Of a DNA stretch of 64,000 nt, positions 1,034 to 63,449 are shown one piece after another. The DNA is taken from the sequence record PQ850617.1; one strand, given 5' to 3'. The notes beneath the pieces are model-generated. The model did no database searches, had not been told where the DNA came from, and saw only the letters and a program-made list of their open reading frames with translations. This DNA is from Escherichia phage ManiMatter_Bas94. How positions within the stretch are numbered: position 1 is the stretch's first letter; each line of letters begins with the position of its first letter. The position numbers were made by a program, and so were the translations under genes.

Positions 1034-1042
1034 TAATGTATA
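1034..1042 (+). promoter_or_regulatory. TAATGTATA promoter-like element
   Basis: Exact TAATGTATA 34 nt upstream of ATG 1076; same 9-mer recurs upstream of genes on both strands. Confidence 0.4.
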
Positions 1043-1075
1043 TTCTTTGTCTACATATAACAAGGAGGACAACCT

Positions 1076-1828
1076 ATGGCAATGCCAGATGTTCAATACC
1101 CCATCAATACCTATGGGTGGCTAAAGAAGGCCGTGGCCCTCTGGGCAGATAGGGACGATGATGAATTTGTTAATCAAATTCCAAACTTTATTAACTTTGC
1201 AGAGAAAGAGATTTATCGTAACTTACGTATCCCTCCTCTGGAAAAAGAAGTGTATTTAGATATTAAAGATGGAGTAGCTTACATTCCTCCTGATTACTTA
1301 GAAGCTCAATGGATGATGAGAGCCAAAGATGGTACAATCTTCCAAGTAACATCTCCTGAAGAGATTAGCTATCGTAGACAGCACGGAACAATTAATCCAT
1401 CTCATTGGAATAACCAACCTGTTAACTTTGCTCGTTTCGGTAGTCGTTTCATTTTCTACCCTAGCATCGAAGCAGATACTCCGTACTACCCTGATGATGG
1501 AAGCCCTTTGATTCCAGCAGAAAACTCAGTGATTCTTAGTTATTATGCAGACCCACCGGAGTTCCATGAAGATACAGACACTAGTGCTATTCTTACTATC
1601 GCACCAGAGCTTCTTCTGTATTTCACCCTACGTCATGCTTGTCTGTTTGTTCAAGATGATAACGGTGTTCAGAAATGGTCAGCATTAGGAAAAGCTATCC
1701 TTGATGAAATGGTAGAACAGAATAAGAAACAAGAGTACTCAGGTTCACCTATCGCAATTCCGAATAACATGACCCGACTTCAGAGCAGCTTGCCTGATAT
1801 TTATGGTATTCGTACTTCTCGTGTATAA
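1076..1828 (+). CDS. Hypothetical virion protein (250 aa)
   Basis: ORF with SD AAGGAGG; position between capsid and tail-fibre genes. Confidence 0.5.
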   Translation: MAMPDVQYPINTYGWLKKAVALWADRDDDEFVNQIPNFINFAEKEIYRNLRIPPLEKEVYLDIKDGVAYIPPDYLEAQWMMRAKDGTIFQVTSPEEISYRRQHGTINPSHWNNQPVNFARFGSRFIFYPSIEADTPYYPDDGSPLIPAENSVILSYYADPPEFHEDTDTSAILTIAPELLLYFTLRHACLFVQDDNGVQKWSALGKAILDEMVEQNKKQEYSGSPIAIPNNMTRLQSSLPDIYGIRTSRV

Positions 1829-1837
1829 GGAGATAAT

Positions 1838-4486
1838 ATGATCGTTTATAATAACCAAGCACCTGATGCAGTGAATAACGTTGGGCAGTTTGGTGCTACT
1901 GAAGGCTCTATCGGAGCTTACAAGCAAGCGGCAGAATATGCAGCTGATTCTAAGTATTGGTCACTGTTGGCAGAGGCTAAGTTTGGTACAGTTGATGACT
2001 TGATTGCTCAGGTTGAGATTCTATACAAACAAGGTGTTCTATTAAGAGAAGATATTGAAGACTTAAAACAAGACTTCATTGCACAAGATGCTCGTTTGAT
2101 GAACCTCATTGCTCAAACTAACGCAGCTGTAGCTGATGCAAATAATGCAGTTGCTCTGATTAATCAGAAACTTGTAGAAGTTCAGAATCAACTCGACGTT
2201 CTGTTGGGAATGTCTGTTGACGTAACTACACTTCCTCCGGGAACTCCGGCTACTGGCTCTTTTAATCCGAACACTGGTGTAATCTCTCTGGGTATCCCAG
2301 AAGGTGATCCCGGAAAGGATGGTTCTGTTACTGACCTATCTGCTGCTCCTACCGGTACACCGGAGCTGGGGGACATCGGTTTCTATGTTGACAAAGATGA
2401 TAACATTGTTCACAAAACAACTCTCGAAGATATTGCAAACCTGATCCCATCTGTTCGTTCTGTTTCAGTTAACGATGGCCCTGCGCTTGACGGAGAAGTT
2501 GCTCTAACGCTTAACAAAGAGACGGTAGGTTTAGGGAATGTTCTGAACGTGGCTCAGTACAGCCGCCAAGAGATTAATGATAAGTTTGACAAAACAACTA
2601 AAACCTACCAATCGAAAGCCGAAGCTGATGCGGATGCTCAATACCGACAGGTAGGAGAAAAGGTTTTGGTGTGGGACTCAACGAAGTATGAATTCTATAC
2701 TGTTGCAGCGAATAAAACCCTTACTCCGGTTAAAACAGAAGGTCGTATCCTAACTGTTAACTCCCGTTCTCCTGATTCAACTGGTAACATCGATATCGTA
2801 ATCCCAACAGGAAACCCATCTTTGTATTTAGGGGAGATGGTAATGTTCCCTTATGACCCAGCTAAAGCTGTCTCCTATCCGGGCATTCTTCCTGCGGACG
2901 GTCGTTTGGTGTCAAAAGAATCTGCTTTGGATTTAGGCCCATCCCTTATCAGTGGACAACTCCCTGTTGTTTCTGAAACAGAGTGGCAAGCTGGTGCTAA
3001 GCAATATTTCTCTTGGGGTAAATTAGCCGATGGCATCACTGATGCAGATTCTACTAACTATATCAATATCCGTCTTCCTGATTGGACAGGCGGTGAGGCT
3101 ATTCGATCCCCTGATTCTGTAAAAGATAGTGCATATAAAGGTAATGTTCAAAGTCAGGTCCCTTATGTAGTCACTGTAAATAACCAAGCTCCTGATGAGA
3201 TTACAGGTAACGTCAATATCTCCAGATCTATCTTAGGTGCTGCTGCTGCTGGTGCAAACTCTGATATAACATCTCTCGCAGGGCTTACAACAGCGCTTTC
3301 TGTCACTCAGGGTGGAACAGGTGCAAAGAATTCCAATGATGCTAAGGTAAATTTAGATTTAGACAGAATAGAGCAAGGTTCTGGAGAGACTAAGATCCTA
3401 TCTCCAAATAAAGAAACCTACATGTTTGTTGATAATGACGGGTGGGGTTGTTACCGTACCACGGCTGGGTTGGTCGGTACTGTAGCTTTGTCAGTTGAGA
3501 GAGGGGGCACTGGAGCAACAGATGTTGCTAGTGCAAGAGATAATCTAGGACTTAAATCTCTTTCTACATTAGATACTGTTCCAGTAACAAAAGGTGGGAC
3601 AGGTGCTATCACTGCTGCGGAGGCTAGGTCTAATTTAGGTCTTGGTTCTGTTGCTACTCTTAGTAACGTACCAATCGCTAGTGGTGGTACAGGTGCTAGT
3701 GATGCTGCCGGTGCAAGGTTTAATTTGGGGTTGGGAAATGTTTCTACTCTGGACAACGTACCAGTTGCTAGTGGTGGTACAGGTGCTAGTGATGCTGCCG
3801 GTGCCCGAAGCAACCTCGGAGCGCTGAGTAACACTCCAGCAAACACAGGTGCAGGTAATACTGGTGCGCGAGTCCAACATGCCACCGGAAGAGGTCTGTT
3901 TACTTTAGACATGTTTAACTGCTACTGGTATATGCAGCCAGAGGATACTAACTTCTGGGTTGCCCACGGTGTGTCATATGCAGGGCCTAATGGCGAAGCC
4001 TCAGAGTATGGTCGTATATCTTACGCAATAAAGATTGCAGATGGAACAACAAAATATGTCCATTGTCTTACAAACAAAAACACCATCATTGATACAGGCG
4101 GATTTATCAAAGCGGCATCTCCGGTAGTTAACATTTATGCCAACGGTCGGTATGAAACGAACGATGAGTCTGAGGGGGTTAGTGTCATCCGGCAGGGTAT
4201 TGGTGAATATCTGATTACCGGTTGCCTCGGTCTTAACTCTGATGCAAGATGGGGTGGGGTGGATGGGGGGTTTGAAATCCCAACAGATCGCAACAAGCAA
4301 CCTAGGATTTGGCTGGACTATGAGGTTAAAGAAGATGGTTCTATTTTAGTTAAAACCTATCACAGAACTCACCCAACCTCTCCAGTTTTTGCTAGAAACG
4401 AGATAGAAGGTTTTTCTGATGGGGACCCTATTGATATTCCAAGTGATGCTTTTATCTCAGTTCGTGTAGAGATGCCAGCTGAGTAA
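1838..4486 (+). CDS. Tail fibre protein with GGTGA/ARxNLGL repeats
   Basis: Repeated motif ...GGTGA(S/T)DAAGAR(S/F)NLGLG... about 5 times (aa ~480-640), N-terminal coiled coil. Confidence 0.7.
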   Translation: MIVYNNQAPDAVNNVGQFGATEGSIGAYKQAAEYAADSKYWSLLAEAKFGTVDDLIAQVEILYKQGVLLREDIEDLKQDFIAQDARLMNLIAQTNAAVADANNAVALINQKLVEVQNQLDVLLGMSVDVTTLPPGTPATGSFNPNTGVISLGIPEGDPGKDGSVTDLSAAPTGTPELGDIGFYVDKDDNIVHKTTLEDIANLIPSVRSVSVNDGPALDGEVALTLNKETVGLGNVLNVAQYSRQEINDKFDKTTKTYQSKAEADADAQYRQVGEKVLVWDSTKYEFYTVAANKTLTPVKTEGRILTVNSRSPDSTGNIDIVIPTGNPSLYLGEMVMFPYDPAKAVSYPGILPADGRLVSKESALDLGPSLISGQLPVVSETEWQAGAKQYFSWGKLADGITDADSTNYINIRLPDWTGGEAIRSPDSVKDSAYKGNVQSQVPYVVTVNNQAPDEITGNVNISRSILGAAAAGANSDITSLAGLTTALSVTQGGTGAKNSNDAKVNLDLDRIEQGSGETKILSPNKETYMFVDNDGWGCYRTTAGLVGTVALSVERGGTGATDVASARDNLGLKSLSTLDTVPVTKGGTGAITAAEARSNLGLGSVATLSNVPIASGGTGASDAAGARFNLGLGNVSTLDNVPVASGGTGASDAAGARSNLGALSNTPANTGAGNTGARVQHATGRGLFTLDMFNCYWYMQPEDTNFWVAHGVSYAGPNGEASEYGRISYAIKIADGTTKYVHCLTNKNTIIDTGGFIKAASPVVNIYANGRYETNDESEGVSVIRQGIGEYLITGCLGLNSDARWGGVDGGFEIPTDRNKQPRIWLDYEVKEDGSILVKTYHRTHPTSPVFARNEIEGFSDGDPIDIPSDAFISVRVEMPAE

Positions 4487-4495
4487 ATAAAACAT

Positions 4496-6744: not shown

Positions 6745-6753
6745 TAATATATA
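6745..6753 (+). promoter_or_regulatory. TAATATATA variant of the TAATGTATA element
   Basis: One-mismatch copy 13 nt upstream of ATG 6766. Confidence 0.3.
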
Positions 6754-16240: not shown

Positions 16241-17896
16241 ATGCAACAGACAACTTACGCTCAGGTCAGAAGTCGTGACCCGAGAAATACTTTCTATGGT
16301 GTTAATCCGGGAGCGGCTTCGGCCTCTCCTTATATGGCTAGACCTATTCAGACAGCAGATGTTTCTATGTACCGACGTCCTTCTGTACCTCCATCTCTCG
16401 CAGGTCTTATCTCTCAGGCAGAAGAAGATCAGAATGCTATGGTGAATCCGGGATTTCAGCAACGTCTTATGGAACAACAGAATCGAGGAACCCCAACAAG
16501 TCTTCAGGGTATTGATATTGGAGCACCAGCCCCTGTAGCAGCTAATCCTGATTTATCCACTGATCAGGGTTTACAAGATGCTGGACTTATGCCTAGCGAC
16601 CCTCTTCCGGTAACGCCTCCTACTAAACCGCTAGAAGATGGCCCTATGGAGTTTACTCCTTCTCAAGTGGAACAGGCACAAGGTGTTGTTACTACTCTTG
16701 CTCAAGGTCAGGACACTGGAGACGGAATGGCTGGGGCTACTCGTATTAAAGATCAGGAACGTGTTAATAATGATATCATGCAAATTGCTAAAGCTAAAGA
16801 CCCTTCCGAAGCTTGGAATAAACTACAGAAAGAACCTTTCTATCAGAATTCCAGTTTCTATACAGGTTTGATGGGTGTAGGTCTTTCTATCATGTCAGGT
16901 AAATCTCCTATCGAAGCATTCCAAATTGGTCAGGGAATGGCTAATCAAGATGAGACTAAGAAGCAACTAGAAGCTAACCGTGATGCTCTGATTGAACAAG
17001 GTTTCTCTCAAGACTCAATTGCAGCTGCTATTGCTAACGGAGATCCATCTCTTCTGAAGATGAAAACTATAGACCCTGCTCAAAAAGAAGCATGGTATGA
17101 GGAGCGTGAAAGACGTCAGAATGCGGAGTGGGATAGACGTCAACAGATTCAAGAGAAATCTATGCGTGAGCGTGCTGAGGAAACTCGTCGTGCTGCTGAA
17201 GAGAGGACTAACATGAACCTTGAACGTCAGAAAAAGTTGATTGACTATCGTGATAAGGTTAAGGCTGAACGTGCCGAACAAGCTGCTCAGAGTTTTAACT
17301 TCTCCCCTAAAGAGACTCGTAACGCTCAGAATACAGCTGAAGGTAAAGTTGCCACTCAGTGGGCAGAGAAAGGTGGCCTGTTTAACCAATCCAATAAAGA
17401 CTTGGACTTGGCTGATAAAGCTATTAAGGACAAGGATTACCAGACGGCCCGTTCTGCTTACATGCAGGCTATCATGAACTCCGCAAGGGCTGAAATCGGT
17501 TCTACTCGTTCTCTTACTGAAGAAGACTTGGGACATTTTGCAGAAGATCCATCAATCTTCATCCGTGTAGGTAACAAGTTCGCTCTGAAGTCGGGATGGC
17601 GTCCTACTGATTCTGCTCTTGCTTATGCTCGTAAACAAGCGAACGTCGGTTACACCTCTGCTATGAAGGGTGTTGCTGATGCTAAGAAAGCTGTTATCGA
17701 AGCGTACATCGGCTCTAAGATGGATAAGAAGAGAGCTACTGCATTGGTTAACCGTGCAATCCCTTCTGGCGGTTTCTATGATCCTCTCGGTGTTTTCTCT
17801 GAGGAAGCAGAAGAGTCAGTTGGTGGTGCAGCAACCAATCCTAAACTGAATGGTGCTTTATCTGGTTCTTCAGATACTAGCTGGTTCACTGAGTAA
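16241..17896 (+). CDS. Hypothetical virion protein (551 aa)
   Basis: ORF in structural block; charged coiled-coil middle region. Confidence 0.45.
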   Translation: MQQTTYAQVRSRDPRNTFYGVNPGAASASPYMARPIQTADVSMYRRPSVPPSLAGLISQAEEDQNAMVNPGFQQRLMEQQNRGTPTSLQGIDIGAPAPVAANPDLSTDQGLQDAGLMPSDPLPVTPPTKPLEDGPMEFTPSQVEQAQGVVTTLAQGQDTGDGMAGATRIKDQERVNNDIMQIAKAKDPSEAWNKLQKEPFYQNSSFYTGLMGVGLSIMSGKSPIEAFQIGQGMANQDETKKQLEANRDALIEQGFSQDSIAAAIANGDPSLLKMKTIDPAQKEAWYEERERRQNAEWDRRQQIQEKSMRERAEETRRAAEERTNMNLERQKKLIDYRDKVKAERAEQAAQSFNFSPKETRNAQNTAEGKVATQWAEKGGLFNQSNKDLDLADKAIKDKDYQTARSAYMQAIMNSARAEIGSTRSLTEEDLGHFAEDPSIFIRVGNKFALKSGWRPTDSALAYARKQANVGYTSAMKGVADAKKAVIEAYIGSKMDKKRATALVNRAIPSGGFYDPLGVFSEEAEESVGGAATNPKLNGALSGSSDTSWFTE

Positions 17897-17916
17897 GACC
17901 TAAGTCCTGCCTTCCA

Positions 17917-17925
17917 TAATGTATA
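17917..17925 (+). promoter_or_regulatory. TAATGTATA promoter-like element
   Basis: Exact 9-mer 38 nt upstream of ATG 17963. Confidence 0.4.
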
Positions 17926-17962: not shown

Positions 17963-20900
17963 ATGGCTAACATTAAACCGTGGGAAGAAGCTTCCAAAGC
18001 TCCTGCGTATCTGAATGCCTCTCCGGAGCAACAGGCTCAAATGAGAGAACAATATAAGGCAGCAGGTGGCTTTATTCCTGAGGAACAACCAGTAGCACAA
18101 CCACAACAAGAAGAACGTGGTGTTATAGGTGAGGTTGCTCAAGGTGTGTCAAATGCTCTTCAATCTGGTGGTGCAAACATTGCAGCTAGTGCTGCTAAAG
18201 GTATTGGTGGTTTAGTTGAGATTGGTGAAGATCTAATTGGAGCACAAACTAGTTATGGTAAGCGTATCCAAGAGAACTCTCAGAACCTTCTGAAAGAACG
18301 TATGGATAAGATTGAGGATGGGATTGGTAAAACTGCTGGTCAGTATGCTGGCGTTGTTGGTGATATTGGTTTGACAGTTACTAACCCGTTAGCTGCCGCT
18401 GCTATCATCGCAGGTCGTGAGACAGGTCGTGCATATGCAGACCAAACCCCTAAAGAGGGAGAAGACAAGTCTGTTCTGGATGCAGCCTTAGTTGGTGGTG
18501 CTAACTATGCAGCTCAGAGAATTCTTCCGGGTGCTGTTGGTACAGCTGAATCTACACTTGGTCGTATCGGTCAGAACGTTGTTACTAACGCAGTGGCTGG
18601 TGCTAAAGGCGGTGCTCTTGTAGGTGCTGCTGAAGCTCAGAACAAATATGGTGATGACACAACCTTTGCTAATGTCTTAGAAGGCGCTATTGAAGAAGGT
18701 GCTATTGGTGCTGCATTCGGTGGTGCAGTTGGTGGTGTTCATGGCTTAATTAGCCGTCCAGATTCTGCTGTCTTCAAGAATACTCCAGAATATGCAAAGA
18801 CTGACATTGCTGCTGACGATGAGCTGATTCGTAGTGCTAAGACTGTTGATGAACTGAAAGAAGCCTACTCTAAAGCTGAAACTGCTAACGCCGCTTCCGC
18901 TCTTAATCTTCTGGATGAGAATGGATTCCGTATTACTGATGCTGTTGCTTTAGATTCTCCTGCTGCTCAGCGTATTCTTAATACAGACCAAGCCAGTGCT
19001 GAGAAAGCTGCTTCTGCTCAGAAAGAGCATTCTAACATTCCGGGCCTCAATCCTTTGGCTCCTCCTGCTAAGACTCGTGGTAAAGCATTCGCTGATAACG
19101 AGCACAACCAGAAGAAAGCTGTCGCTATGAAAGATGCAATGGCTGACTACACCAAGGATAACACGAAAGTTCTTACAGATGTTCTAGATAACCTAGACCG
19201 TGAATTAACTGCTTACCGAGCTGCTGATGATTTTACTGGCAATCCACTTGATGTCAAGAATCGCACACAAGCTGACCGTGACTTCGTTGATGCTTATAAG
19301 ACTTTCTATAATGAAGCAAATCGATTCAAAGCTCGTGATGGTGAAGACTTTAACAACTTTGTAGAGAAAGCTACTGAGCTACGGAAGATGGCTGATAACG
19401 TTTCTCCAGAGATGAAGAAAGCTATTAGTGGGTTGAAGAAACTGAAAGGTATGCCTGAAGGTTTTAACCCTATTCAAGATGCTTATACTCTGAACAATGC
19501 AGCTAAGTTCATGAGCAACCAAGACCGTGGTTGGACTTCCCTGACCGATGATGGATTCCGTGAGGCTTCTTCTCCTAGTCTGGTTATGAACACACTCGGT
19601 GCTGCTAAGTATGCTCTGAATCGCTTCTCTTCTCAGCGTGCTCGCTCTCAACGTGTTAAGCAACAAGAAGCTAACAGCGAAGCTATCCGCTCTCTGGCTC
19701 GTGGTGATTTGGAAGTTGCTCGTGCTAAATCTACTGCTGATGAAGCTCGTGCTAAAATGGAAGAAGAACCAGTTGTTGATGACATTAAATTTAAGACGCA
19801 AAATGACGTGGAAACCGAACCGGTTCGGGAGCCTTCTTCTAGTACTGTGACGGAAGAAAATCTTCCTTCTTCCACTCCTCAAGAAGCCCCTCTTACAGCT
19901 CGCGATTTAGTTGCTCAAAGACGTGCAGTTAAACAGGCAGAACAGCGTCGCGCTCAAGAAGAGGCCGCACAGGCTCCAGAACCCACTGTAGAGGAACCAA
20001 CGGTTAAAGCTGAGCCATTACCTGCCCGTGCTCCTAAAGCTCCTAAGGAGTCTATACAGGACGTTAAACCGGCAAGTGGTGTAGAACGTTTAGCTGCCAT
20101 GTCTAGTGCTGCTCGTCAGGCTACTATAGATCGTGCAGAACGTTTTGCTCGTTCTCTGTACTCTCAGACTGCTAAGGCTAAGGCCACTGCTGAAAACTTC
20201 TTGGCTTACAAGGGAAGTTATAGGGAGTTGATGCGTCGGATTCGTCAGGAAGATAATGCTATCAACACTGAGCGTCATGAAGAGATGGCTCGTAATCAGC
20301 TAGCTTCTCAGCAAGGTATTGCTACTGCTAAGAACAACACTGTACGAACTAACTTTGCTGAATGGGTTAAGGAACGTGGTCTGCCAGAAGACATTGCTAC
20401 TAAGGCATTACGTGCTGAAGAGAAGGGTTTAGGTGGGAACGTGACTAACTTAGATAGTCTGAAACGTCGTGCTGAAAGGTTGTATCAGAAGCAGCGTGAG
20501 GACGAGTTTGATAGACTGTATCAACAGGCTCTGGAAGAGAATAAAGCTTTTGATAAGAAGAATGCTCCTAAACTGGCTGACCAGAAGAAAGAACTTCAAT
20601 CTGAGATTGATACTTTGATTGATTCAGAACCTTTACGTCCTGCTCAGAAAGATGCTATGCGTAAACTGATGAATGACTTTGTAGATGAGAAGTTTAAATC
20701 TTCAGAGAAGGCTGGTAGGGAAGAAGCTTTGGAAGTAGGTCAGATGAAGGATATTTGGGATGGGTTTATTAACACCTATAACAGAGAAGTGAATGCCTTC
20801 AACAAAGCTAACAAGAACTCTCAGTACGAAGCTTTTGCTAAACACATACAGGCTCGTGAAGAACGTCTTGCTACTCTGAAAAATAAAGCTCAGGCTCGTG

Positions 20901-22270
20901 CTCAAGCGAAAGCTACAGCAGAAGCTGAACGTCAGTTACTCGAAGCTATTGCAGCTCAGAAGAGTGAGATTGAGAAGATGTTTGATGAGTTACCTAAACC
21001 TGTCCGCGAGGCTCAGGAAAGCCGTACTCTGAAACAGCTTGCAGCTCACCATGATAAGAACTCCCCTGTTCCTCCAGAACGTTTCCGTAGTATTATCGAA
21101 CGTATCCACAACGCCGAGTCAGATTACCTTGATCGTCAGCGTCGTTTAACTGATGCAGAAGAAGATGCTCGTCAGGCTAAGTGGAACAAAATGTATGAGC
21201 AAGCGGAAGAGATGGACCGTAAGTTTGAGATAGACAAAAGGGTTAAGCGCAGTGAAGAGCTTAAAGCGGCTCAGAAGCGTGAGAATGACCTTATGGCGGT
21301 ACAACGTCAACGTGACGACATCCATCGTCGCCTGATGCATACTTTGGAGGATAGGGGCATATCTAAAGAGGATGCTGAAGCATTTGCTGGTTCCTACATG
21401 GATAACCGTTATGCACTTCTTGATAAGCCTATGACTCCTACTGAACATCAGAATGCTCGTTCTCGTATTGAGGCTGATGTTGAGAAGTTTGCTAAGAAGT
21501 ACGAATCAATGACTCCTATTGAGAAAGAGATTGTTAAGGTTACTGGAGATACTGAAGGTAAGCTTGATAACTTGGATTCGGATACTAGGAAGGCTATTGA
21601 AGAGGCTCGGAAGGTAGACTCTGATATTAAGAAACTGCAAGAGGAAGAGATGGAGATGGAGAAGATTCGTTCTGCTCTGCCTGATGATGAAAGATCTCAA
21701 GCAAATTCTGATATCTTGGAAAGCATTAAACAGCAGGAAGAAGCCTTTGCTGATAAAGCAGAGAAAGCTTTCTTGAATGGGAAGAGCTTGGATGAGTTGG
21801 CTAGTGTGGCTGAAGTTTTAGACAGGGTTCATGGTGCAGACAAGGCTGGTAACAACCGTCGCTTTGTACGTGCATTGCAGACTGCTGCTGAAAACAAGAA
21901 GAAGTATGGTGATAATCCGGTAGCTTGGTTTAGTGCTGATGATTATTCTGCTATTGCTAAACTTGGTGCTTCTTCCGCAGGTGGTAACAAATCTAGAGCA
22001 CTGGAGAAAATCTTTGGTTCTACAGCTGAACAAGCTAAGAGTAAGTTGCTTGGCAGGGATGATGTAGCGAAGATGAGACGTGTAATTGAAGAGAACCCTG
22101 ATATTAAGATTCCTTCTTACAAGACAACGAATCGTACTGAGTACTTGCAGTTCTTGGAGAAGTTTAATGACGAAGGGAAGCCGAAGATTAAACGTGGCTC
22201 ATTGTCAGAGAAGCTTGAACGCAGTAAGCGTCAATCGAGACTCCGTGTAAGAGTTCGATCTAAGGAGTGA
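17963..22270 (+). CDS. Large internal virion/ejection-type protein (1,435 aa)
   Basis: Gly/Ala-rich amphipathic N-terminus, long charged coiled-coil body; last gene of plus block. Confidence 0.5.
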   Translation: MANIKPWEEASKAPAYLNASPEQQAQMREQYKAAGGFIPEEQPVAQPQQEERGVIGEVAQGVSNALQSGGANIAASAAKGIGGLVEIGEDLIGAQTSYGKRIQENSQNLLKERMDKIEDGIGKTAGQYAGVVGDIGLTVTNPLAAAAIIAGRETGRAYADQTPKEGEDKSVLDAALVGGANYAAQRILPGAVGTAESTLGRIGQNVVTNAVAGAKGGALVGAAEAQNKYGDDTTFANVLEGAIEEGAIGAAFGGAVGGVHGLISRPDSAVFKNTPEYAKTDIAADDELIRSAKTVDELKEAYSKAETANAASALNLLDENGFRITDAVALDSPAAQRILNTDQASAEKAASAQKEHSNIPGLNPLAPPAKTRGKAFADNEHNQKKAVAMKDAMADYTKDNTKVLTDVLDNLDRELTAYRAADDFTGNPLDVKNRTQADRDFVDAYKTFYNEANRFKARDGEDFNNFVEKATELRKMADNVSPEMKKAISGLKKLKGMPEGFNPIQDAYTLNNAAKFMSNQDRGWTSLTDDGFREASSPSLVMNTLGAAKYALNRFSSQRARSQRVKQQEANSEAIRSLARGDLEVARAKSTADEARAKMEEEPVVDDIKFKTQNDVETEPVREPSSSTVTEENLPSSTPQEAPLTARDLVAQRRAVKQAEQRRAQEEAAQAPEPTVEEPTVKAEPLPARAPKAPKESIQDVKPASGVERLAAMSSAARQATIDRAERFARSLYSQTAKAKATAENFLAYKGSYRELMRRIRQEDNAINTERHEEMARNQLASQQGIATAKNNTVRTNFAEWVKERGLPEDIATKALRAEEKGLGGNVTNLDSLKRRAERLYQKQREDEFDRLYQQALEENKAFDKKNAPKLADQKKELQSEIDTLIDSEPLRPAQKDAMRKLMNDFVDEKFKSSEKAGREEALEVGQMKDIWDGFINTYNREVNAFNKANKNSQYEAFAKHIQAREERLATLKNKAQARAQAKATAEAERQLLEAIAAQKSEIEKMFDELPKPVREAQESRTLKQLAAHHDKNSPVPPERFRSIIERIHNAESDYLDRQRRLTDAEEDARQAKWNKMYEQAEEMDRKFEIDKRVKRSEELKAAQKRENDLMAVQRQRDDIHRRLMHTLEDRGISKEDAEAFAGSYMDNRYALLDKPMTPTEHQNARSRIEADVEKFAKKYESMTPIEKEIVKVTGDTEGKLDNLDSDTRKAIEEARKVDSDIKKLQEEEMEMEKIRSALPDDERSQANSDILESIKQQEEAFADKAEKAFLNGKSLDELASVAEVLDRVHGADKAGNNRRFVRALQTAAENKKKYGDNPVAWFSADDYSAIAKLGASSAGGNKSRALEKIFGSTAEQAKSKLLGRDDVAKMRRVIEENPDIKIPSYKTTNRTEYLQFLEKFNDEGKPKIKRGSLSEKLERSKRQSRLRVRVRSKE

Positions 22271-22279
22271 TAAAAGAAA

Positions 22280-22322
22280 AGCCCTCAAGGAGAAAACCTC
22301 TTTGAGGGCTTTATTTGTTTTT
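22280..22322. terminator. Bidirectional rho-independent terminator at convergence point
   Basis: 9-bp stem AGCCCTCAA/TTGAGGGCT flanked by A-tract upstream and T-tract downstream. Confidence 0.65.
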
Positions 22323-22482
22323 AGAGGTTATTGATGAAATTAATCAGACGTTCTTCACTATCATCAAAAGCTTTTCCAGCTGCTTCCATGTCCCAAGTAT
22401 TGGCATTGTCAATAAAGCTCTGAGCTTCTAATAGATCGTGGATTAAGTCGAAGAGTTTATTTTTATCTGATTGTGTGATCAT
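22321..22482 (-). CDS. Small acidic hypothetical protein (53 aa)
   Basis: ORF below track threshold: MITQSDKNKLFDLIHDLLEAQSF...; last minus-strand gene. Confidence 0.3.
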   Translation of the reverse strand: MITQSDKNKLFDLIHDLLEAQSFIDNANTWDMEAAGKAFDDSEERLINFINNL

Positions 22483-22490
22483 GTAAGTTC

Positions 22491-22718
22491 CTAGATTAAA
22501 TCGTAATATTGAATAATGTCAGAGAGTTTGAACTCTCGAATCTCGTCTTTCTCTACATCTATCGCTGTCATAATCCAACAAGGTTTGCCACAGTTATGAA
22601 AACGGGAGCTAGCAACGGAGGTTCGGAGTGGAATAACGGACCGGTCAGCAACCTCGCCTCTCCAATTGCGATAGCGAAAGCGAAGCACTTGTTGCGTAGA
22701 TTTTTGATCATCACTCAT
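22491..22718 (-). CDS. Hypothetical protein
   Basis: Track ORF 22491-22859 probably starts at internal Met (MSDDQK...) to avoid overlap with HNH gene. Confidence 0.3.
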   Translation of the reverse strand: MSDDQKSTQQVLRFRYRNWRGEVADRSVIPLRTSVASSRFHNCGKPCWIMTAIDVEKDEIREFKLSDIIQYYDLI

Positions 22719-23112
22719 TTCCTTTTTTGAATTGTTTTCTTGCATCATTCTCTTCTTTTGTTTTAATCTTATGACAAGGATCTTTACACAGAACCTGAAA
22801 ACCTTCTTTCTCACACAGAGCACGAGAGATGATTTCATCCCAAGTAGCTTCATGGTCAAGAGGTACTATAGGCTCTATGTGGTCAATAGCCATATCTTTT
22901 ACAGGGTGGTCAGAACCACACATGGCACACTTAAAGTGCATTGCCAGTCTACCTGTCTTTGGATTAATCTTCTGTTCTGTCTTGGCTTCTGCTAGTGCAT
23001 CGAACATGGGCTTCCACTTTCTAGTCAGAGAACGAATCCCTGACTTGATGAAAGAGTTGTAACGAGCTTCAGTCCAAGTTCCACTACATCGTGTCTTCTC
23101 AGACTTCGCCAT
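22711..23112 (-). CDS. HNH endonuclease
   Basis: CAMCGSDHPVKDMAIDHIEPIVPLDHEATWDEIISRALCEKEGFQVLCKDPCH HNH/zinc motif. Confidence 0.65.
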   Translation of the reverse strand: MAKSEKTRCSGTWTEARYNSFIKSGIRSLTRKWKPMFDALAEAKTEQKINPKTGRLAMHFKCAMCGSDHPVKDMAIDHIEPIVPLDHEATWDEIISRALCEKEGFQVLCKDPCHKIKTKEENDARKQFKKGNE

Positions 23113-23278
23113 AATCAGCTTCTTCCCAAACTCGTTTGTTTACACGATGACTCACTTTGCCCTCACGAGGAATACGACCTGTCCGCTGATCAAACAGTTG
23201 ATGTTTAATCTTTTGATCTTTACGAGATTCACGATTGGAAGAGTTTTCATCATATGAACGATAATCAAATTTACCCAT
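23099..23278 (-). CDS. Hypothetical protein (59 aa from MGKFDY...)
   Basis: SD AAGGA 9 nt upstream of internal ATG. Confidence 0.3.
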   Translation of the reverse strand: MGKFDYRSYDENSSNRESRKDQKIKHQLFDQRTGRIPREGKVSHRVNKRVWEEADYGEV

Positions 23279-23291
23279 TATAATATCCTTA

Positions 23292-24110
23292 TCACCAAAT
23301 TTTTTCGAGCCACGACCAATCAAATAGGTCTTCCGGAGCCTGACCAACAAAGAGCAGCCGAGCATTCTCAAGCATTTTCTCTTCATCTTCAGTATCGAAC
23401 TTCTTATAATATTCCATTCGTACTATATGATACATGGTCCACTTATCTGTAACCCCAGCCAACAACTTAGCTGCTGCTTTCTTCCCTATTCCTTGACGTC
23501 GAAGCTGGAGCTTACCGCCCCACATCACTTCTTTACGTTCACCACATCCGGGAATATTATCTGTTCCATCTCCAATCAGCATCTGATAGAAGAAATTTTG
23601 CCATGAAACTAAATCAGATACGTAGTGAGGAGGAACCTCTTTTTGTCTTTCTCCACAAGCCCAACGGTAATGCCATCCGGGAGTTATTAACAAATCTTTG
23701 TCTCTAGTACAGATGATAGTGTTCTTATCTCTACGTTGCCTTTCAGCTAGTGCATCATCAGCCTCTCTCCCAAATACATCTATGTATTCATACTTACCTT
23801 TAATATAATCACCGACATTTTGCCAGTGAAAAGGTCTTTCTCCGGGAGGTCTGTTTGCTTTGTAGTCTTGCTGCTTAGCAACATCGAAACGGAAGTTACC
23901 GCCTTCGCTGAAGTAGAACACAACCTTGCTGCAACCTGAGCGAGCAATGATAGTATCTATCTTGTACTGAAGTCGTTCAATCATGAAATTATAATCAACT
24001 GGAACACGTCCTGTGTCAAGAAAGGGATGCTCCTGAGTAAGAGCACCCACTTCATATCGAAGAACGTCAGCATCCACTATAGCTACTTCAGGGAGCTTAA
24101 CGTCTTCCAT
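23292..24110 (-). CDS. 5'-3' exonuclease (T7 gene 6-like / FEN family)
   Basis: DYKANR and GDGTDNIPG motifs typical of 5' nucleases. Confidence 0.65.
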   Translation of the reverse strand: MEDVKLPEVAIVDADVLRYEVGALTQEHPFLDTGRVPVDYNFMIERLQYKIDTIIARSGCSKVVFYFSEGGNFRFDVAKQQDYKANRPPGERPFHWQNVGDYIKGKYEYIDVFGREADDALAERQRRDKNTIICTRDKDLLITPGWHYRWACGERQKEVPPHYVSDLVSWQNFFYQMLIGDGTDNIPGCGERKEVMWGGKLQLRRQGIGKKAAAKLLAGVTDKWTMYHIVRMEYYKKFDTEDEEKMLENARLLFVGQAPEDLFDWSWLEKIW

Positions 24111-24111
24111 A

Positions 24112-25282
<1,171 letters not shown>

Positions 25283-25528
25283 AATGCATCTCTTTATAAA
25301 TAGTTTCCGTGTTCTTCTTCCAGTTAGATAAACCGGTAAGAACTCTCTGAGCAACTTCATCAGCTGCCTTGCTTCTTTCAATCTCTAACTCTTGTTGATG
25401 CTTTTCTTTATCCAGATTGTTACTATCTGTTCTGTACTCATTAAACTTCATTCCGCCAAAGAACACCAGAGCAGAGAAGATAACAAATCCTAGATTATCA
25501 CTTAAAGTGCTTTGCATATTGACCCCAA

Positions 25529-25553
25529 CGAAAAAAGCCACCCGAAGGTGGCT
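25529..25553 (-). terminator. Rho-independent terminator (minus strand)
   Basis: Perfect hairpin AGCCACC-CGAA-GGTGGCT followed on minus strand by TTTTTT. Confidence 0.6.
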
Positions 25554-25574
25554 AAGCTATAACAAGGAGAGTTA

Positions 25575-26321
25575 TTAGAATGGGCTGTCGTTGTCGTCTT
25601 CGTAGGTAGAAGCAGGCTCTTTATCAATCGTAGGGATTGAAGGAGTAGCTTCTTTCTGTTCTGTTTCAGAAGCACGAGTAATTTCACGACCAGCCAGAGG
25701 TATGTTCTTAGCGTCATTAGCTTGAGTAAGCAGGTTGCGCTGGAACGGGAACATCAGTTGATAAGATGCTACGTTCTCATCGGTTTCAGCATACGGTTCG
25801 AAGAATACCAGAGGACTACGAGCTTCACCAACTGCTGCACGATATTTGGTTGGGATTGGAGAAATGGTTTTGATGGAGTTTTTAACTTCACCAGCTTTGT
25901 TAGTGTAGGAGTTAACCAGAATGTTAACAGGCTGACCTAACAGCACATCCTTAAACCAAGACAGATCACCTTTCAGTGCTTGAATGCTTGGGTCAATCAT
26001 CTTGCAAAGATCAAGGATACCAGAGTTCTTAGCTCGTGGGTTTACATCATAACTCTTGAACTGGCAAGCAGGACGTGGTTCTAATGCCTTACCATCGGAA
26101 TCTTTACCCGTAGCATCAACACCAATCAGCTCGAAAGCCAAATCCATACGGAAAGCTGGATTCTTAGGAGTTACTGCTTTGGTCTTCGGGTCAATCCAAG
26201 GGTCACGATTGTGAACACCCAAACCTACTACACGAACAATACGTGCTTCGTATTCACCATCAGGGATTACATCGTAGTTGGATTTACGAGAAGAAGTTGC
26301 GATAGTTGGAATCATAGACAT
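25575..26321 (-). CDS. ssb: Single-stranded DNA-binding protein
   Basis: Acidic C-terminal tail ...YEDDNDSPF ending in Phe as in SSB proteins; sits in replication block. Confidence 0.55.
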   Translation of the reverse strand: MSMIPTIATSSRKSNYDVIPDGEYEARIVRVVGLGVHNRDPWIDPKTKAVTPKNPAFRMDLAFELIGVDATGKDSDGKALEPRPACQFKSYDVNPRAKNSGILDLCKMIDPSIQALKGDLSWFKDVLLGQPVNILVNSYTNKAGEVKNSIKTISPIPTKYRAAVGEARSPLVFFEPYAETDENVASYQLMFPFQRNLLTQANDAKNIPLAGREITRASETEQKEATPSIPTIDKEPASTYEDDNDSPF

Positions 26322-26380
26322 ATTTTAATTTCCTTATTTAATTTGAAAGATTGTTGCTCTCTTTGAGCGGTTATGTATAA

Positions 26381-26389
26381 TATACATTA
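26381..26389 (-). promoter_or_regulatory. TAATGTATA promoter-like element (part of a near-palindrome)
   Basis: Minus-orientation TAATGTATA ~60 nt upstream of SSB start; plus-strand TTATGTATA abuts at 26371-26379. Confidence 0.4.
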
Positions 26390-26452
26390 CGCTTATACCG
26401 ATAAGAGTACTATATAATATAAGTGTCTTTGGTAGTAGATATAACACACTAG

Positions 26453-26461
26453 TAATGTATA
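26453..26461 (+). promoter_or_regulatory. TAATGTATA element, plus orientation, in 400-bp intergenic region
   Basis: Exact 9-mer; no obvious plus-strand gene downstream. Confidence 0.3.
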
Positions 26462-26742
26462 TATTGTATAGCTGATAAAGTTATTGCAGGCTTGTATATT
26501 GGGCAATTCATAGAATCCCTTGCAAGTACCGAAGGGCAGGAGCCACCTGCGAGATAAAAATAGAGAATTAAGGAATCCTTGATTTAGGTTGTAGGGACTC
26601 CTAGGGACTTTGATTCTCTATTTAAAAGAATAAATAATTACTATATCTAATACTAAACAGACTGAAACAAAGATAAGAAACTTCTTATAAATACTCATTA
26701 CTTATCATCTAAATAGTTAACTAATCTCTGATATAAAGAAGT

Positions 26743-26931
26743 TTAAATCAAGCATCCATCACAAACATAGTCTCCACTAAGAGACTCTTGTAACAAACGA
26801 TTTTGTTCCTCTGAATATAGAGAATTTACTAATTCTTTTAACTCTGAAAGAGTGATGAAATCAATAGTATTTCCATTATCTAAAATAGAAGAGTTAAGTA
26901 AATATTCATTGTCTTTAATTTTATTAATCAT
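26743..26931 (-). CDS. Hypothetical protein
   Basis: 62-aa ORF. Confidence 0.35.
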   Translation of the reverse strand: MINKIKDNEYLLNSSILDNGNTIDFITLSELKELVNSLYSEEQNRLLQESLSGDYVCDGCLI

Positions 26932-27228
26932 TCTTCATTTCCTTTTACTTCAGCGTAGACTTTGATAATGCCCTTAAGAACTTCCTTAGAAGCAATAGCA
27001 CTTTCTTCAGAGGTGTGAATAGTAGAAAACTCTTTCTTTCCAATCTTGTAAGTGTGAACCCAAATCATACTTATTCCTCGTATTCCCAATTTCTTTCATA
27101 ATATCCAGAGTTATAATTTAGAGCGCATCTCTCAGCCTCTTCTATGTCATCAGTGTTTAGGATATTTACCCACCCACCAACTTCATCAAAACCTTCTTCC
27201 TCTTCGTTAAACCATACACTATACTTTT

Positions 27229-27621
27229 TCATCGAATCACCAAAGGCTCTTCAGAGTACACAGGAGCGGCTATTTCTACAGGAGGTGCTGCCCTAAGGTC
27301 ATTAAGTCTTACACCCTTCAGCATCCCATCTAGGTGGTCCTTTTTGGGTATTCCAACAGGGAAGTCGTCAATCCAGATATCTACAAAGAAACCTAACTGG
27401 CGACATACGTCATCTTTCTGAACACCATTGCAAAAGATGATAGGAATCTGCAAACGCTCTGCATCAATCTTAATGTCGTGATTATCATACCCATTAGGCT
27501 CTGCAAAGCGGTAAGTTACAAAACGTACATCATAACCTTTGGCTTGCATTAATGCCACCACAGATCGCCACAGCTCTTTATCTGAGGTGTAAGTATCATC
27601 GTAATCTAAACCAATATTCAT
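27229..27621 (-). CDS. HAD-like phosphatase candidate
   Basis: N-terminal MNIGLDYDDT contains DxDxT motif. Confidence 0.4.
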   Translation of the reverse strand: MNIGLDYDDTYTSDKELWRSVVALMQAKGYDVRFVTYRFAEPNGYDNHDIKIDAERLQIPIIFCNGVQKDDVCRQLGFFVDIWIDDFPVGIPKKDHLDGMLKGVRLNDLRAAPPVEIAAPVYSEEPLVIR

Positions 27622-27668
27622 GTTGAATCCTTTTAGACAAGAAAAGCCGCCCTAAGGCAGCTTCTTAT

Positions 27669-27845
27669 TTAACTATTCACTTTAGCTTCAAGTGTTTCAT
27701 TTTCAATACTCAAGTCAATCACTACGCCAGTAAGCTCAACGACTGCTTGGCGAAGGGCGTCTTTACCCATAGAATGTACTTGAGATAAGAAGAAAGCTTT
27801 ACCTTCTTCCGTGGATAGGGTTTCTTTTAATTCAGAAGCAGTCAT
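27669..27845 (-). CDS. Small hypothetical protein (58 aa)
   Basis: ORF below track threshold, MTASELKETLSTEEGK... Confidence 0.3.
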   Translation of the reverse strand: MTASELKETLSTEEGKAFFLSQVHSMGKDALRQAVVELTGVVIDLSIENETLEAKVNS

Positions 27846-27859
27846 TGATATTCCTTATT

Positions 27860-28051
27860 TTACATTGTATAAATTCGCATGATTGTACCACCATCAGCTT
27901 CAATAGCAGAAACAACTTCATCTCGTTCTTCATCCGTGTACACTAGTACGCTTTTAAACGAGCCAGTCACATCTGTGTACAAAATGTTGTACTTGGGAGG
28001 TGGTTTACGGTAAATACCTTCCATCATTCTTTCTCCTCTCGTTCTTTCCAC
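27860..28051 (-). CDS. Hypothetical protein
   Basis: 63-aa ORF. Confidence 0.35.
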   Translation of the reverse strand: MERTRGERMMEGIYRKPPPKYNILYTDVTGSFKSVLVYTDEERDEVVSAIEADGGTIMRIYTM

Positions 28052-28221
28052 AGTTCAGCAAGCTCTAGGTAGAACTCAGCTTCATCAGGACGTCCTTGTT
28101 CATTACAGATGGCGCTTTGACGATAACACCAATCTGATGGCATCTCTTCCACTTCAATCTCCTTATTATGAACTAATCAATAAGACTAGTTCATTTGTAT
28201 TTCAATCTTTCAGTTCTGAAT

Positions 28222-30772: not shown

Positions 30773-30788
30773 TTTATACTCCTTTAAA

Positions 30789-31211: not shown

Positions 31212-31214
31212 AGC

Positions 31215-31469
31215 TTAACCTTTAGGGAATGGGATGAGGTTTTCTACTGCAACACGGAATTCTTTCTCTACATCTTTATTCTTATAAGAAATGAATTTCC
31301 CATCAGCACCACGGAGGATTACGTTAGTGCGAGCTGTTTTTGGGTTATGACTGATTTGGTTTGCAATGAGACTAATGTTGAGTTTAGTGTTGTGGTTATT
31401 GGTGAATTTCCACTTAGCCAGACGATTAGTCATTACATCAATGATAGTTACAGTTTTTACAATAGACAT
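31215..31469 (-). CDS. Hypothetical protein
   Basis: 84-aa ORF. Confidence 0.4.
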   Translation of the reverse strand: MSIVKTVTIIDVMTNRLAKWKFTNNHNTKLNISLIANQISHNPKTARTNVILRGADGKFISYKNKDVEKEFRVAVENLIPFPKG

Positions 31470-31532: not shown

Positions 31533-31537
31533 TCATA

Positions 31538-36023: not shown

Positions 36024-36346
36024 TTAGGGTCTTCTCCTTCTAACTCAGTAGAGTTTGCTACATTTCTTTCTAGATTACTTAGGATCTGCTGGGTAATTAC
36101 GATGCAGTTCTGTGGGTCTACTGACTTAGAACGCCCCATTTCTGGGTCATACACCTTAACACGCTTAGCAGTTGAACCTGTAACCTGAAGAACCTTCAAC
36201 AGATATCCCTGATTACCGATAGACCAAGCAACAACATCACGATTCTTGATAAAGCGACCAAGCATATCACGATGATAAAACTGTTGCATCACCTTGGATT
36301 TTGTAATCTCTTCAGTGGGCGGGGCCACTTTACTCAAATCTAACAT
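36020..36346 (-). CDS. Hypothetical protein
   Basis: 108-aa ORF. Confidence 0.4.
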   Translation of the reverse strand: MLDLSKVAPPTEEITKSKVMQQFYHRDMLGRFIKNRDVVAWSIGNQGYLLKVLQVTGSTAKRVKVYDPEMGRSKSVDPQNCIVITQQILSNLERNVANSTELEGEDPK

Positions 36347-36385: not shown

Positions 36386-36393
36386 TATACATT
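36386..36393 (-). promoter_or_regulatory. AATGTATA promoter-like element
   Basis: Minus-orientation AAATGTATATAG ~40 nt upstream of ATG 36346. Confidence 0.4.
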
Positions 36394-36418
36394 TGAGAGT
36401 TACCATATCTACTACCAA

Positions 36419-53597: not shown

Positions 53598-53676
53598 TGA
53601 GGATGACAGGATTTGAACCTGCATACTCCAATTACTTCTTTAACGACCGCTTAGAAGGCGGGGAAGATACATCCTC
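53598..53676 (-). other. tRNA-like element (perfect acceptor stem and T-arm, non-canonical body)
   Basis: Minus strand GAGGATG...GCAGG-TTCAAAT-CCTGT-CATCCTC-A; no 5-bp anticodon stem found by hand. Confidence 0.25.
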
Positions 53677-61729: not shown

Positions 61730-62172
61730 TTCTATCACTCCAATCACTCAATCCGTAGGCTTCAATTTACTACTACTTAATAAGGAAAGCAATCACCACG
61801 GGCAAAATACTACCCGCAGAACAGACCACGGGGGAACGTGCCAGATAATGCGGTAATAATATTCCACTTAAATAATTAGTTAACTATTAATAACATTACT
61901 CAAACATCAAACGTTAAAAGAAAAGAATAACAGAACGCTGAAAAAGAAAAGAATAAAAAGAAATATAATAAACATCAAACATAATCTTTCCACTTAATTA
62001 ATGCATATATCATTATTGCACTCATAATTATCACCATTGAAACTATTTACATTCAAACTATGGGGGATGGCGATAGTTGCTATCCGGTATTAATAGCCTC
62101 AATATAATCAAGCATTAACAATGGCTAGCCTTTCCCATACTCTTTTAAGGGGCACTAAATAAACGGGTATTA

Positions 62173-62180
62173 AATGTATA
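62173..62180 (+). promoter_or_regulatory. AATGTATA element, plus orientation
   Basis: TAAATGTATAGG in divergent intergenic region. Confidence 0.3.
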
Positions 62181-62576: not shown

Positions 62577-62747
62577 TAGTGCCTTAACGTGACATAGCCT
62601 TTATGAAGTCCCCTTTATGACATGCCCTTTACTTCAGCGTACACGGGTTGTCAATGATGACATGGCCTTTACGGGTAGGTCTTATGATGTGCCCTTTATA
62701 CTTCAGAGACAGCTACTACGTAGCGTCGTATTCAGAGGAGAAGAATT

Positions 62748-62969
62748 ATGAATTTAGTATTAGACTTTTTATCAGAGGTTGTGCCTCGCTTTCGTACGGA
62801 GACTTGTGCCTTCGTTAAAATATCCCCTGAAGAATTAGAATGCATTGGTCGTCTGGTTGACTTGGATGACGATGAAGAATTTGATGCAACGATGGAAGTT
62901 AGTAGCCTAGGATGGTTATTCTTCCGAGCGTTCACCACTATCAAACCACACACTTATAAGGAATACTAA
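62748..62969 (+). CDS. Small acidic hypothetical protein
   Basis: SD AGGAG; 73 aa. Confidence 0.4.
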   Translation: MNLVLDFLSEVVPRFRTETCAFVKISPEELECIGRLVDLDDDEEFDATMEVSSLGWLFFRAFTTIKPHTYKEY

Positions 62970-62972
62970 TTT

Positions 62973-63404
62973 ATGTTAGATTGTAAATATCAAGGAGATG
63001 ATATGTTAGATTTAATCCACACTACTCGCCCTAATTCTAAAACTAAAACACAACCATCTACTCTGGAAGTAATTGAATACGAATCTACTAAACATGATCA
63101 CCTCCCTGACTATGCTCGTGCAATGATTGAGATGATTGAAGAAGCTGAATATGAAATGCTCCATGATTACATCACCTCCAAAGATGAATGGCATCGTGAT
63201 GTTCGAATCGAAGAAGATGGTACAGAAACAATTACGTGGATTCACAAGAGTGAGTTAGTAGACGACGCACTGCGAGACTACGAAAAATTTTTGGTCGACG
63301 GCTCTATTCTTTTAGAGGAAGAGAAGGGTGTAGAACTTCCGTGGGAGGGTGAGACAGTTGCTTTAGGTAAGATGTTTAACCTGTCCGTTGGTGATTGTAA
63401 GTAA
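62973..63404 (+). CDS. Acidic hypothetical protein (start probably ATG 63003)
   Basis: Strong SD AAGGAG before second ATG; Glu/Asp-rich. Confidence 0.4.
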   Translation: MLDCKYQGDDMLDLIHTTRPNSKTKTQPSTLEVIEYESTKHDHLPDYARAMIEMIEEAEYEMLHDYITSKDEWHRDVRIEEDGTETITWIHKSELVDDALRDYEKFLVDGSILLEEEKGVELPWEGETVALGKMFNLSVGDCK

Positions 63405-63440
63405 TGTTTGCCTCCTTTGGGAGGCTTTTTGTGTTGTTGA

Positions 63441-63449
63441 TAATGTAGA
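63441..63449 (+). promoter_or_regulatory. TAATGTAGA variant of TAATGTATA element
   Basis: Directly upstream of SD/ATG 63461. Confidence 0.3.

Follow-up and report, generated by a model that had tools for sequence, protein, structure and literature searches.

The TAATGTATA element that recurs upstream of genes in Escherichia phage ManiMatter_Bas94 (PQ850617.1) was analyzed in a stretch of 64,000 nucleotides (nt) of that genome, hereafter the window, and is, with high confidence, the −10 element of middle and late promoters read by a phage-encoded sigma factor, a homologue of gp36 of phage phiEco32. A first-pass annotation, made from the bare sequence, had proposed that the element marks promoters of a phage sigma factor; six of its sites turn out to be the equivalents of the six published gp36 promoters, at homologous positions, and the phiEco32 middle/late consensus to which it had likened the element is indeed the published one, tAATGTAtA. 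Since the published promoters, the sigma factor, and gp79 are all matched in the window, the analysis supports this interpretation as correct, and the phenomenon as already known and ordinary for the phage group. The main finding is the rediscovery, from raw sequence, of a known switch in which a phage sigma factor and gp79 seize the host RNA polymerase, and it adds no new biology. What goes beyond the six promoters, as these are listed in papers citing the primary study, is a conserved, putative orphan promoter with a structured non-coding region downstream of it.

Megablast searches of positions 20000–32000 and 1–25000 against a phage collection identified the window as belonging to a phiEco32-like podophage of the genus Kuravirus (Gordonclarkvirinae), with more than 120 matching records from phages of Escherichia, Shigella, and others. 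The nearest relatives in these searches, Bas93, Bas92, and LAMP, are 97–99% identical to the window, and phiEco32 (EU330206) is ~93% identical.

The six known promoters

Equivalents of the phiEco32 promoters were assigned by listing all AATGTA sites in the window, in phiEco32, and in the more divergent ECBP2. At all six, window and relatives agree in their variant bases, and the flanking sequence is conserved as well. The six sites lie upstream of, and in the same orientation as, homologues of the late genes 6, 13, and 26 and the middle genes 40, 58, and 68, whose products are 91–99.6% identical to gp6, gp13, gp26, gp40, gp58, and gp68. In the list below, distances are those from the box to the start codon.

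63418–63449, plus strand: P6 equivalent, late; −10 TAATGTAGA at 63441–63449, TGGGAG at −38 to −33; gp6 homologue at 63461–63931 (96.8% identical to gp6), 11 nt downstream
1011–1042, plus strand: P13 equivalent, late; −10 TAATGTATA at 1034–1042, TAAGACCTA at −38 to −30; immediately preceded by a terminator-like hairpin; gp13 homologue at 1076–1828 (99.6% identical), 33 nt downstream
17894–17925, plus strand: P26 equivalent, late; −10 at 17917–17925, TAAGACCTA upstream element as in P13; gp26 homologue at 17963–22270, 37 nt downstream
26381–26412, minus strand: P40 equivalent, middle; −10 at 26381–26389, upstream element TAGTAC; gp40 homologue at 25575–26321 (99.2% identical to gp40), 59 nt downstream
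31892–31923, minus strand: P58 equivalent, middle; −10 at 31892–31900; gp58 homologue at 31538–31855 (94.3% identical to gp58), 36 nt downstream
36386–36417, minus strand: P68 equivalent, middle; −10 AAATGTATA at 36386–36394, TGGTAGTAGATA at −38 to −27; gp68 homologue at 36020–36346, 39 nt downstream

According to three papers that quote the primary study, phiEco32 has six gp36-read promoters with the consensus tAATGTAtA and transcription starts 6–8 nt downstream (PMC4331800, PMC4281155, PMC8948821). Table S3 of PMC8948821 gives the late promoters as P6 TAATGTAgA, P13 TAATGTATA, and P26 TAATGTATA, and the middle promoters as P40 TAATGTATA, P58 TAATGTATA, and P68 aAATGTATA. Five −10 boxes in the window match the consensus exactly, and the two deviating ones, AAATGTATA (36386, minus strand) and TAATGTAGA (63441, plus strand), are the published P68 and P6 variants. 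The P6 site agrees in its variant base and in its context with phiEco32 1677 (plus strand) and ECBP2 1895 (plus strand).

A palindrome around P40 (26371–26389) was considered as a functional element; it is present in phiEco32 and broken in ECBP2, and is probably incidental.

At 31850–31900 on the minus strand, the sequence CTCCTTA directly after the P58 box can pair with the Shine-Dalgarno sequence TAAGGAG of gene 58. A gene 58 leader RNA including this 5′ arm is predicted to form a 12-bp hairpin (−13.1 kcal/mol, z −3.5), and the leader beginning at the predicted P58 start is unstructured. As the hairpin forms only with the 5′ arm, read-through RNA may hide the ribosome-binding site of gene 58, and P58-initiated RNA may expose it. 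The CTCCTTA/P58 leader sequence is identical in ECBP2.

The sigma factor, gp79, and promoter recognition

Both phage proteins on which the phiEco32 switch depends are encoded in the window.

24378–25022, minus strand: gp36 homologue, phage sigma factor gene; 98.1% identical to phiEco32 gp36
42304–42552, minus strand: gp79 homologue gene; 100% identical to phiEco32 gp79

The first of these, which the first-pass annotation had already read as a sigma factor gene, encodes a protein matching chain F of PDB 9M7Y (E=1.8e-144) and PHROG 1740 (RNA polymerase sigma factor). All of the clamp-contact and DNA-contact residues of gp36 are retained in it, namely D44, E47, E49, D50, E54, E79, H80, Y83, R84, W90, S91, S94, N95, Y186, and R187.

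In the cryo-electron microscopy (cryo-EM) structure of the phiEco32 open complex on P68, reported in 2025 (PDB 9M7Y), gp36 contacts −14A, −13A, −12T, and −11G, and its C-terminal domain contacts −37G and −34A; mutation of any of these contacted bases reduces or abolishes activity (PMC12276001). The −11G, which is contacted by E79 and H80, is required for activity (PMC12276001). In phiEco32, the small protein gp79 turns off transcription by sigma-70 and stimulates that by gp36 at P26 and P68; for P26, dependence on gp36 and activation by gp79 were demonstrated in vitro (PMC12276001).

From these data a mechanism can be proposed for the window phage. The TAATGTATA elements would serve as −10 elements of its middle and late promoters and be bound by host core RNA polymerase in complex with the phage sigma factor (24378–25022). 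The N-terminal domain of the latter would read A−14, A−13, T−12, and G−11, with the DNA melting from −11, and its C-terminal domain would touch a weak upstream element comprising T−38, R−37, R−36, any base, A−34, and S−33. The gp79 homologue (42304–42552) would displace sigma-70 and stabilize the phage sigma factor, and transcription would start 6–8 nt downstream of the box. P6, P13, and P26 on the plus strand would thereby express the late packaging, virion, and lysis genes, and P40, P58, and P68 on the minus strand the middle genes for replication and nucleotide metabolism. A seventh fitting site, at 26430–26461 on the plus strand, has no gene downstream and may give rise to a structured non-coding transcript. 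The motif counts, the homology to the mapped phiEco32 promoters, and the retention of the sites, the sigma factor, and gp79 are results of the present analysis; the mode of gp36 recognition, the start-site distance, and the effect of gp79 are taken from the phiEco32 literature, and we infer that they are the same in the window phage.

Motif statistics and the upstream element

The first-pass annotation had pooled exact and near-exact copies as one recurrent element; measured against a background expectation, the recurrence held for the exact form and disappeared in the one-mismatch class. Five exact copies of TAATGTATA occur in the window (1034, 17917, and 26453 on the plus strand; 26381 and 31892 on the minus strand), compared with 0.74 expected, and none of 100 dinucleotide shuffles reached five. 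All five are located in non-coding DNA, which makes up ~10% of the window in a crude coding map.

Seven good sites, comprising the six promoter equivalents and the seventh site at 26430–26461, were then aligned at the −10 box in the window, phiEco32, and ECBP2, giving 21 copies. A−34 was found in all 21 and T−38 in 20; a purine occupies −37 in 20/21 and −36 in 21/21, and −33 is G or C in 19/21. Within the window itself, A−34, T−38, and a purine at −37 are present at every one of the seven sites, with G at −37 in three. The resulting bipartite pattern, TRRNAS-N17-WAATGTAKA, matches seven times in the window (0.04 expected), and with one mismatch allowed the same seven sites alone are returned. 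Applied to phiEco32, it finds exactly the six published promoters and the equivalent of the orphan. T-R-R-N-A-S at −38 to −33 qualifies the older description of these promoters as having a single element and fits the contacts seen by cryo-EM in 2025.

The nonamer TAAGACCTA at −38 to −30 is common to P13 and P26 in the window (1011–1019 and 17894–17902), phiEco32, and ECBP2, is absent from P6 and from the middle promoters, and may be a late-class upstream element; alone, it shows no enrichment in the window. P68 and the orphan site have the −35 element TTGGTAGTAGATA in common, at identical spacing.

Several observations weigh against the promoter assignment or limit the evidence for it. Copies of TAATGTATA with one mismatch number 21 in the window against 20.3 expected, and since this class occurs at the chance rate, individual variants need other evidence, which homology to published promoters supplies for 36386 on the minus strand (AAATGTATA) and 63441 on the plus strand (TAATGTAGA). 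The seven sites were themselves the source of TRRNAS, which makes its count in the window circular in part; this objection does not touch the sharp drop to background or the fit with the cryo-EM contacts. The two comparison genomes, phiEco32 and ECBP2, are related rather than independent. Two of the nine sites in the first-pass annotation are probably not promoters, as described below. Lastly, the SU10 genome paper suggested that sigma-70 may also read middle promoters (PMC4281155).

The last point leads to the alternative that the boxes are −10 regions of sigma-70, or are read by both holoenzymes, for which the TATA-like sequence within the box might also be adduced. We consider this very unlikely: in phiEco32 it is the gp36 holoenzyme that transcribes these promoters, with sigma-70 shut down by gp79 (PMC12276001, PMC8948821), the cryo-EM contacts to A−14, A−13, T−12, and G−11 are specific to gp36 (PMC12276001), and a simple sigma-70 scan of 25500–27500 gave 5 matches against 5.7 in shuffles. 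That the motif is a functionless chance product of AT-rich intergenic composition is scarcely credible; the motif is TA-rich, the intergenic DNA here is AT-rich, and the one-mismatch variants stand at chance level, but neither the exact-copy nor the bipartite count is explained in this way, nor is the invariance of the sites at homologous phiEco32 and ECBP2 positions although their flanks diverge, and the phiEco32 promoters have been mapped experimentally.

Two sites without support

All nine motif copies were found where the first-pass annotation had placed them, with correct coordinates and start-codon distances. For two of these, its promoter reading was not borne out: neither has the upstream element, and in relatives the homologous positions do not retain the motif.

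6745–6753, plus strand: weak site, unlikely to be a gp36 promoter; TAATATATA, ahead of the holin gene
62172–62180, plus strand: doubtful promoter; AAATGTATA in the homologue of the phiEco32 terminal repeat

The site at 6745 has A at −11, and so is without the −11G read by gp36, and also lacks the −38 to −33 element; phiEco32 has the identical sequence, but ECBP2, in which every true promoter is unchanged, does not retain it. At 62172, the bases at −38, −34, and −33 (G, C, and A) violate the upstream element, the aligned phiEco32 position reads TAATGaATA, and a BLAST search for a homologous segment in ECBP2 was negative. Both are outside the published list of six, as relayed by the citing papers. 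Judged by their sequence, they are probably not promoters.

The segment 62127–62298, which includes the second site, shows homology to phiEco32 at both genome ends, that is, to its direct terminal repeat. A full BLAST map showed the window to be collinear with phiEco32 from ~8068 to the right end, over the terminal repeat, and on to 2239. As 62127–62298 matches both phiEco32 ends, the window includes the junction of the physical genome ends, and its source record is either a permuted one or one assembled as a circle.

An orphan promoter-like site

The remaining exact copy of the box is the following.

26430–26461, plus strand: orphan seventh promoter-like site; −10 TAATGTATA at 26453–26461, TGGTAGTAGATA at −38 to −27

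This site is directed away from P40 and opposite to the flanking minus-strand genes, with no open reading frame (ORF) downstream, and transcription from it is predicted to start at ~26467–26469. The first-pass annotation had supposed that the 26453 copy might be a palindromic or bidirectional partner of that at 26371–26389; it is instead a separate divergent site, 63 bp from P40, with a −35 element of its own. Its sequence from −39 to −26, TTGGTAGTAGATAT, is that of P68 in identical register, so that −37G and −34A are placed exactly as in the promoter used for cryo-EM, and exact GGTAGTAGATA occurs in the window only at the orphan site and at P68.

Conservation of the site is extensive. Both the P40 box and the orphan box were present in 15 of the 15 related genomes first compared, in which GGTAG is constant at −37 to −33 of the orphan and the spacer varies in sequence with its length fixed; in ES17-type genomes both are kept despite a 120-bp insertion between them. 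The phiEco32 equivalent, at 36704 on the plus strand, is outside the published six, as these are known from the citing papers. The orphan is likewise missing from the six promoters as given in PMC4331800, PMC4281155, and PMC8948821, through which the primary study is known here, and the database records inspected carry no plus-strand annotation at the locus. Five of six related metagenome contigs also keep the orphan box; counting against the site, the sixth reads TAATaTATA. Overall, the sequence comparisons make it very probable that the orphan is a working gp36 promoter.

The deviating contig (ERZ1034915 NODE-75, 68 kb, ~150 nt upstream of 9058) carries a G-to-A change at −11 with the downstream structured region intact, which could be natural promoter loss or a sequencing error. 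In IMG/VR UViG 3300045988 (~2390–2443, with the ES17-type insertion), P40 itself has GGTAG at −37 to −33, a sequence otherwise seen in P68 and the orphan site.

In three more distant IMG/VR contigs, with gp40 homologues of 68–70% identity, the intergenic region is shorter and different and contains neither TAATGTATA nor any homologous element, a regular expression for promoters of the Salmonella phage 7-11 type found one weak divergent match (L010) in the intergenic region of distant relatives, and collection scans with a conserved 20–23-mer returned close relatives only.

The structured region downstream of the orphan site

The DNA following the orphan site divides into three parts.

26468–26484, plus strand: 5′ hairpin, ATAGCT-gataa-AGTTAT, where the orphan transcript is predicted to begin
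26485–26628, plus strand: ORF-free structured region with a central module, a GCAGG/CCTGC hairpin, and a long stem
26620–26740: AT-rich stretch (GC 18–25%) between the structured region and the minus-strand ORF 26743–26931

Across nine sequence variants of the 5′ hairpin, 98% of cells are paired; two pairs show compensatory changes (UA to GC; CG to UA or AU), and one alternates between GC and GU, which is workable on the plus strand only. Its score was reached by 1 of 500 shuffles, and slid controls collapsed. After the hairpin come TTGCA and then the central module, of which two unrelated alternative versions exist among relatives. The GCAGG/CCTGC hairpin occupies 26537–26551, and a 16-bp stem, in which 26558–26573 pairs with 26608–26623, encloses two direct repeats of TAGGGACT (26592–26609, plus strand) 10 bp apart. 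Both repeat copies read AGGACT in the lineage of ECBP2, EK010, Bas88, and XT32, so that the two have changed together; on this pattern they may be a pair of protein-binding sites.

The region folds better as plus-strand RNA (−45.8 kcal/mol, z −2.4) than as minus-strand RNA (−35.3 kcal/mol, z −1.85), and relatives with the other central module fold at z −2.9 and −3.1. Its 3′ domain (26536–26628) is 91–100% identical even in genomes in which gp40 coding DNA is 83–85% identical, and the few substitutions fall in predicted loops or give plus-strand G-U pairs. No conserved ORF was found downstream of the orphan. Searches of Rfam 15 with the whole window and with 26300–26800 gave no match in the region at the gathering threshold and, at E values up to 10, only chance-level ones of at most 17 bits; BLAST of the region against E. 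coli genomes found no match, and complementarity of the putative RNA to the rest of the phage was at chance level (longest match 12 nt). The bin 26001–28000 has the lowest GC content of the window (0.370). An inverted copy of the orphan −35 region (26642–26663) was discounted, being window-specific sequence without a −10 box. One GenBank record names gp40, encoded next to this region, a single-strand DNA-binding protein; this was not adopted, as gp40 has no Pfam or PDB sequence match and its PHROG family is of unknown function.

Possible roles of the orphan site

On the sequence evidence, the orphan's probable product is a non-coding RNA or a primer for replication. The fuller reading, in which a seventh gp36 promoter conserved in Kuravirus and Suseptimavirus makes a structured non-coding RNA of ~160–190 nt that primes replication or regulates, we would put at about even. 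Two narrower explanations were weighed.

The first is a stable RNA of ~160–190 nt, or a longer RNA antisense to gene 41 and the genes beyond it, that regulates or binds protein. This is quite possible, if somewhat short of an even prospect. It would account for the compensatory changes in the stem-loop at the predicted 5′ end, for the better folding of the plus strand together with the several G-U pairs that are possible on that strand only, and for the folding scores (z −2.4 to −3.1 in three variants). It also suits the two-version central module beside a constant 3′ domain, the lack of an ORF, and a GC skew that is locally positive, like that of sense strands elsewhere in the genome. It is less easily reconciled with the missing Rfam family match, with the lack of an E. 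coli match and the chance-level complementarity to other phage transcripts, and with the plus strand having no convincing terminator, the U-run after the long stem being on the minus strand. The loops, moreover, are nearly as invariant as the stems, which suggests constraint at the level of sequence and not purely of structure.

The second, more tentative explanation places a replication origin here, with the RNA made from an active gp36 promoter either serving as primer for DNA synthesis or opening the duplex. Phage T7 has phage-specific promoters without a protein product at phiOL, phiOR, and the primary origin (phi1.1A/B), where AT-rich DNA follows the promoters; these are read by a single-subunit phage RNA polymerase and not by a sigma factor. 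The gene-less T7 promoters may be taken as a functional analogy for the orphan site, where the T7-type arrangement of a gene-less phage-specific promoter (26430–26461) followed by AT-rich DNA (26620–26740) recurs, with the difference that the window has a conserved, folded segment of 160 nt between promoter and AT-rich DNA. A perfect promoter with no gene behind it, AT-rich DNA (GC 18–25%) ~160 nt downstream, two direct TAGGGACT repeats 10 bp apart, and DNA more conserved than the adjoining coding DNA would all be expected of an origin, as would a position in the middle-gene block, which in phiEco32 contains the annotated DNA polymerase, exonuclease, and ligase genes. Against this, the repeats number only two, the AT-rich part lacks conservation between phiEco32 and the window, and the compensatory hairpin and G-U pattern indicate a folded RNA and not a pure DNA site; literature searches on phiEco32 with replication origin or antisense gave nothing relevant, and no origin is known to have been mapped in the phage group.

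Least likely, and in our view improbable, is that the region is a minus-strand terminator and regulatory block between the P58 operon and P40, with the plus-strand box as a bystander or as a decoy for the holoenzyme. The minus strand does contain an 11-bp stem (AAATAGAGAAT/ATTCTCTATTT) followed by TTTTTAT, and one relative has the G-to-A change at −11 of the box. The stem has a 38-nt loop, however, so that no terminator was called there, either by the scan tool or in the annotation of record WFI101126; neither the −10 nor the −35 element varies, nor does their spacing, although the spacer sequence does, and both elements survive the 120-bp insertion in ES17-type genomes; and the minus-strand counterparts of the G-U pairs in the +1 hairpin would be A-C mismatches.

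Activity of the orphan site is the second point that we infer, here from its sequence and conservation. If it is active, gp36 may control a non-coding product as part of its regulon, and the site becomes a candidate replication origin in a phage group used in therapy studies.

Comparison with known systems

The window agrees with the gp36 promoter system of phiEco32 (Pavlova et al., 2012; Xu et al., 2025; PDB 9M7Y) in the consensus tAATGTAtA, the six positions, and the variant bases. The sigma factors are 98% identical, gp79 is 100% identical, and P68 has the −37G and −34A contacted in the structure. The difference is that the window phage is another isolate, with a ~68 kb genome of the LAMP/Bas92/Bas93 type. 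Confident promoter annotation is therewith possible for this phage and many relatives; few of the records inspected annotate promoters.

T4 late promoters (TATAAATA) are recognized by gp55 with gp33. The likeness lies in a phage sigma-like protein reading a single extended −10-type box on the host core enzyme with the help of a small phage co-factor; the proteins are unrelated, the box is another one, and T4 late transcription depends on a sliding clamp and is not known to involve a −35 contact. A comparison with T4 is also made in PMC12276001.

Salmonella phage 7-11, of a related group, likewise encodes a sigma factor (gp47) that redirects the host RNA polymerase, with comparable promoter positions (PMC8948821). 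The late promoters of phage 7-11 have another, clearly bipartite consensus, GTAAtg-N16-aCTA, and its sigma factor is only ~15% identical; it has no gp79 homologue and no middle class (PMC8948821).

Additional observations

Besides the expected Escherichia phages, 31 Yersinia phage records also matched part of window positions 20000–32000 in the megablast search. At 53598–53676 on the minus strand, Rfam calls a tRNA at 33.4 bits where ARAGORN with default settings makes no call; relaxed ARAGORN calls tRNA-Arg(tct), of which the T-arm alone aligns with the phiEco32 tRNA. The segment lies between alignments of the window to the DNA flanking tRNA-Arg in phiEco32, and the tRNA may be divergent or degenerate.

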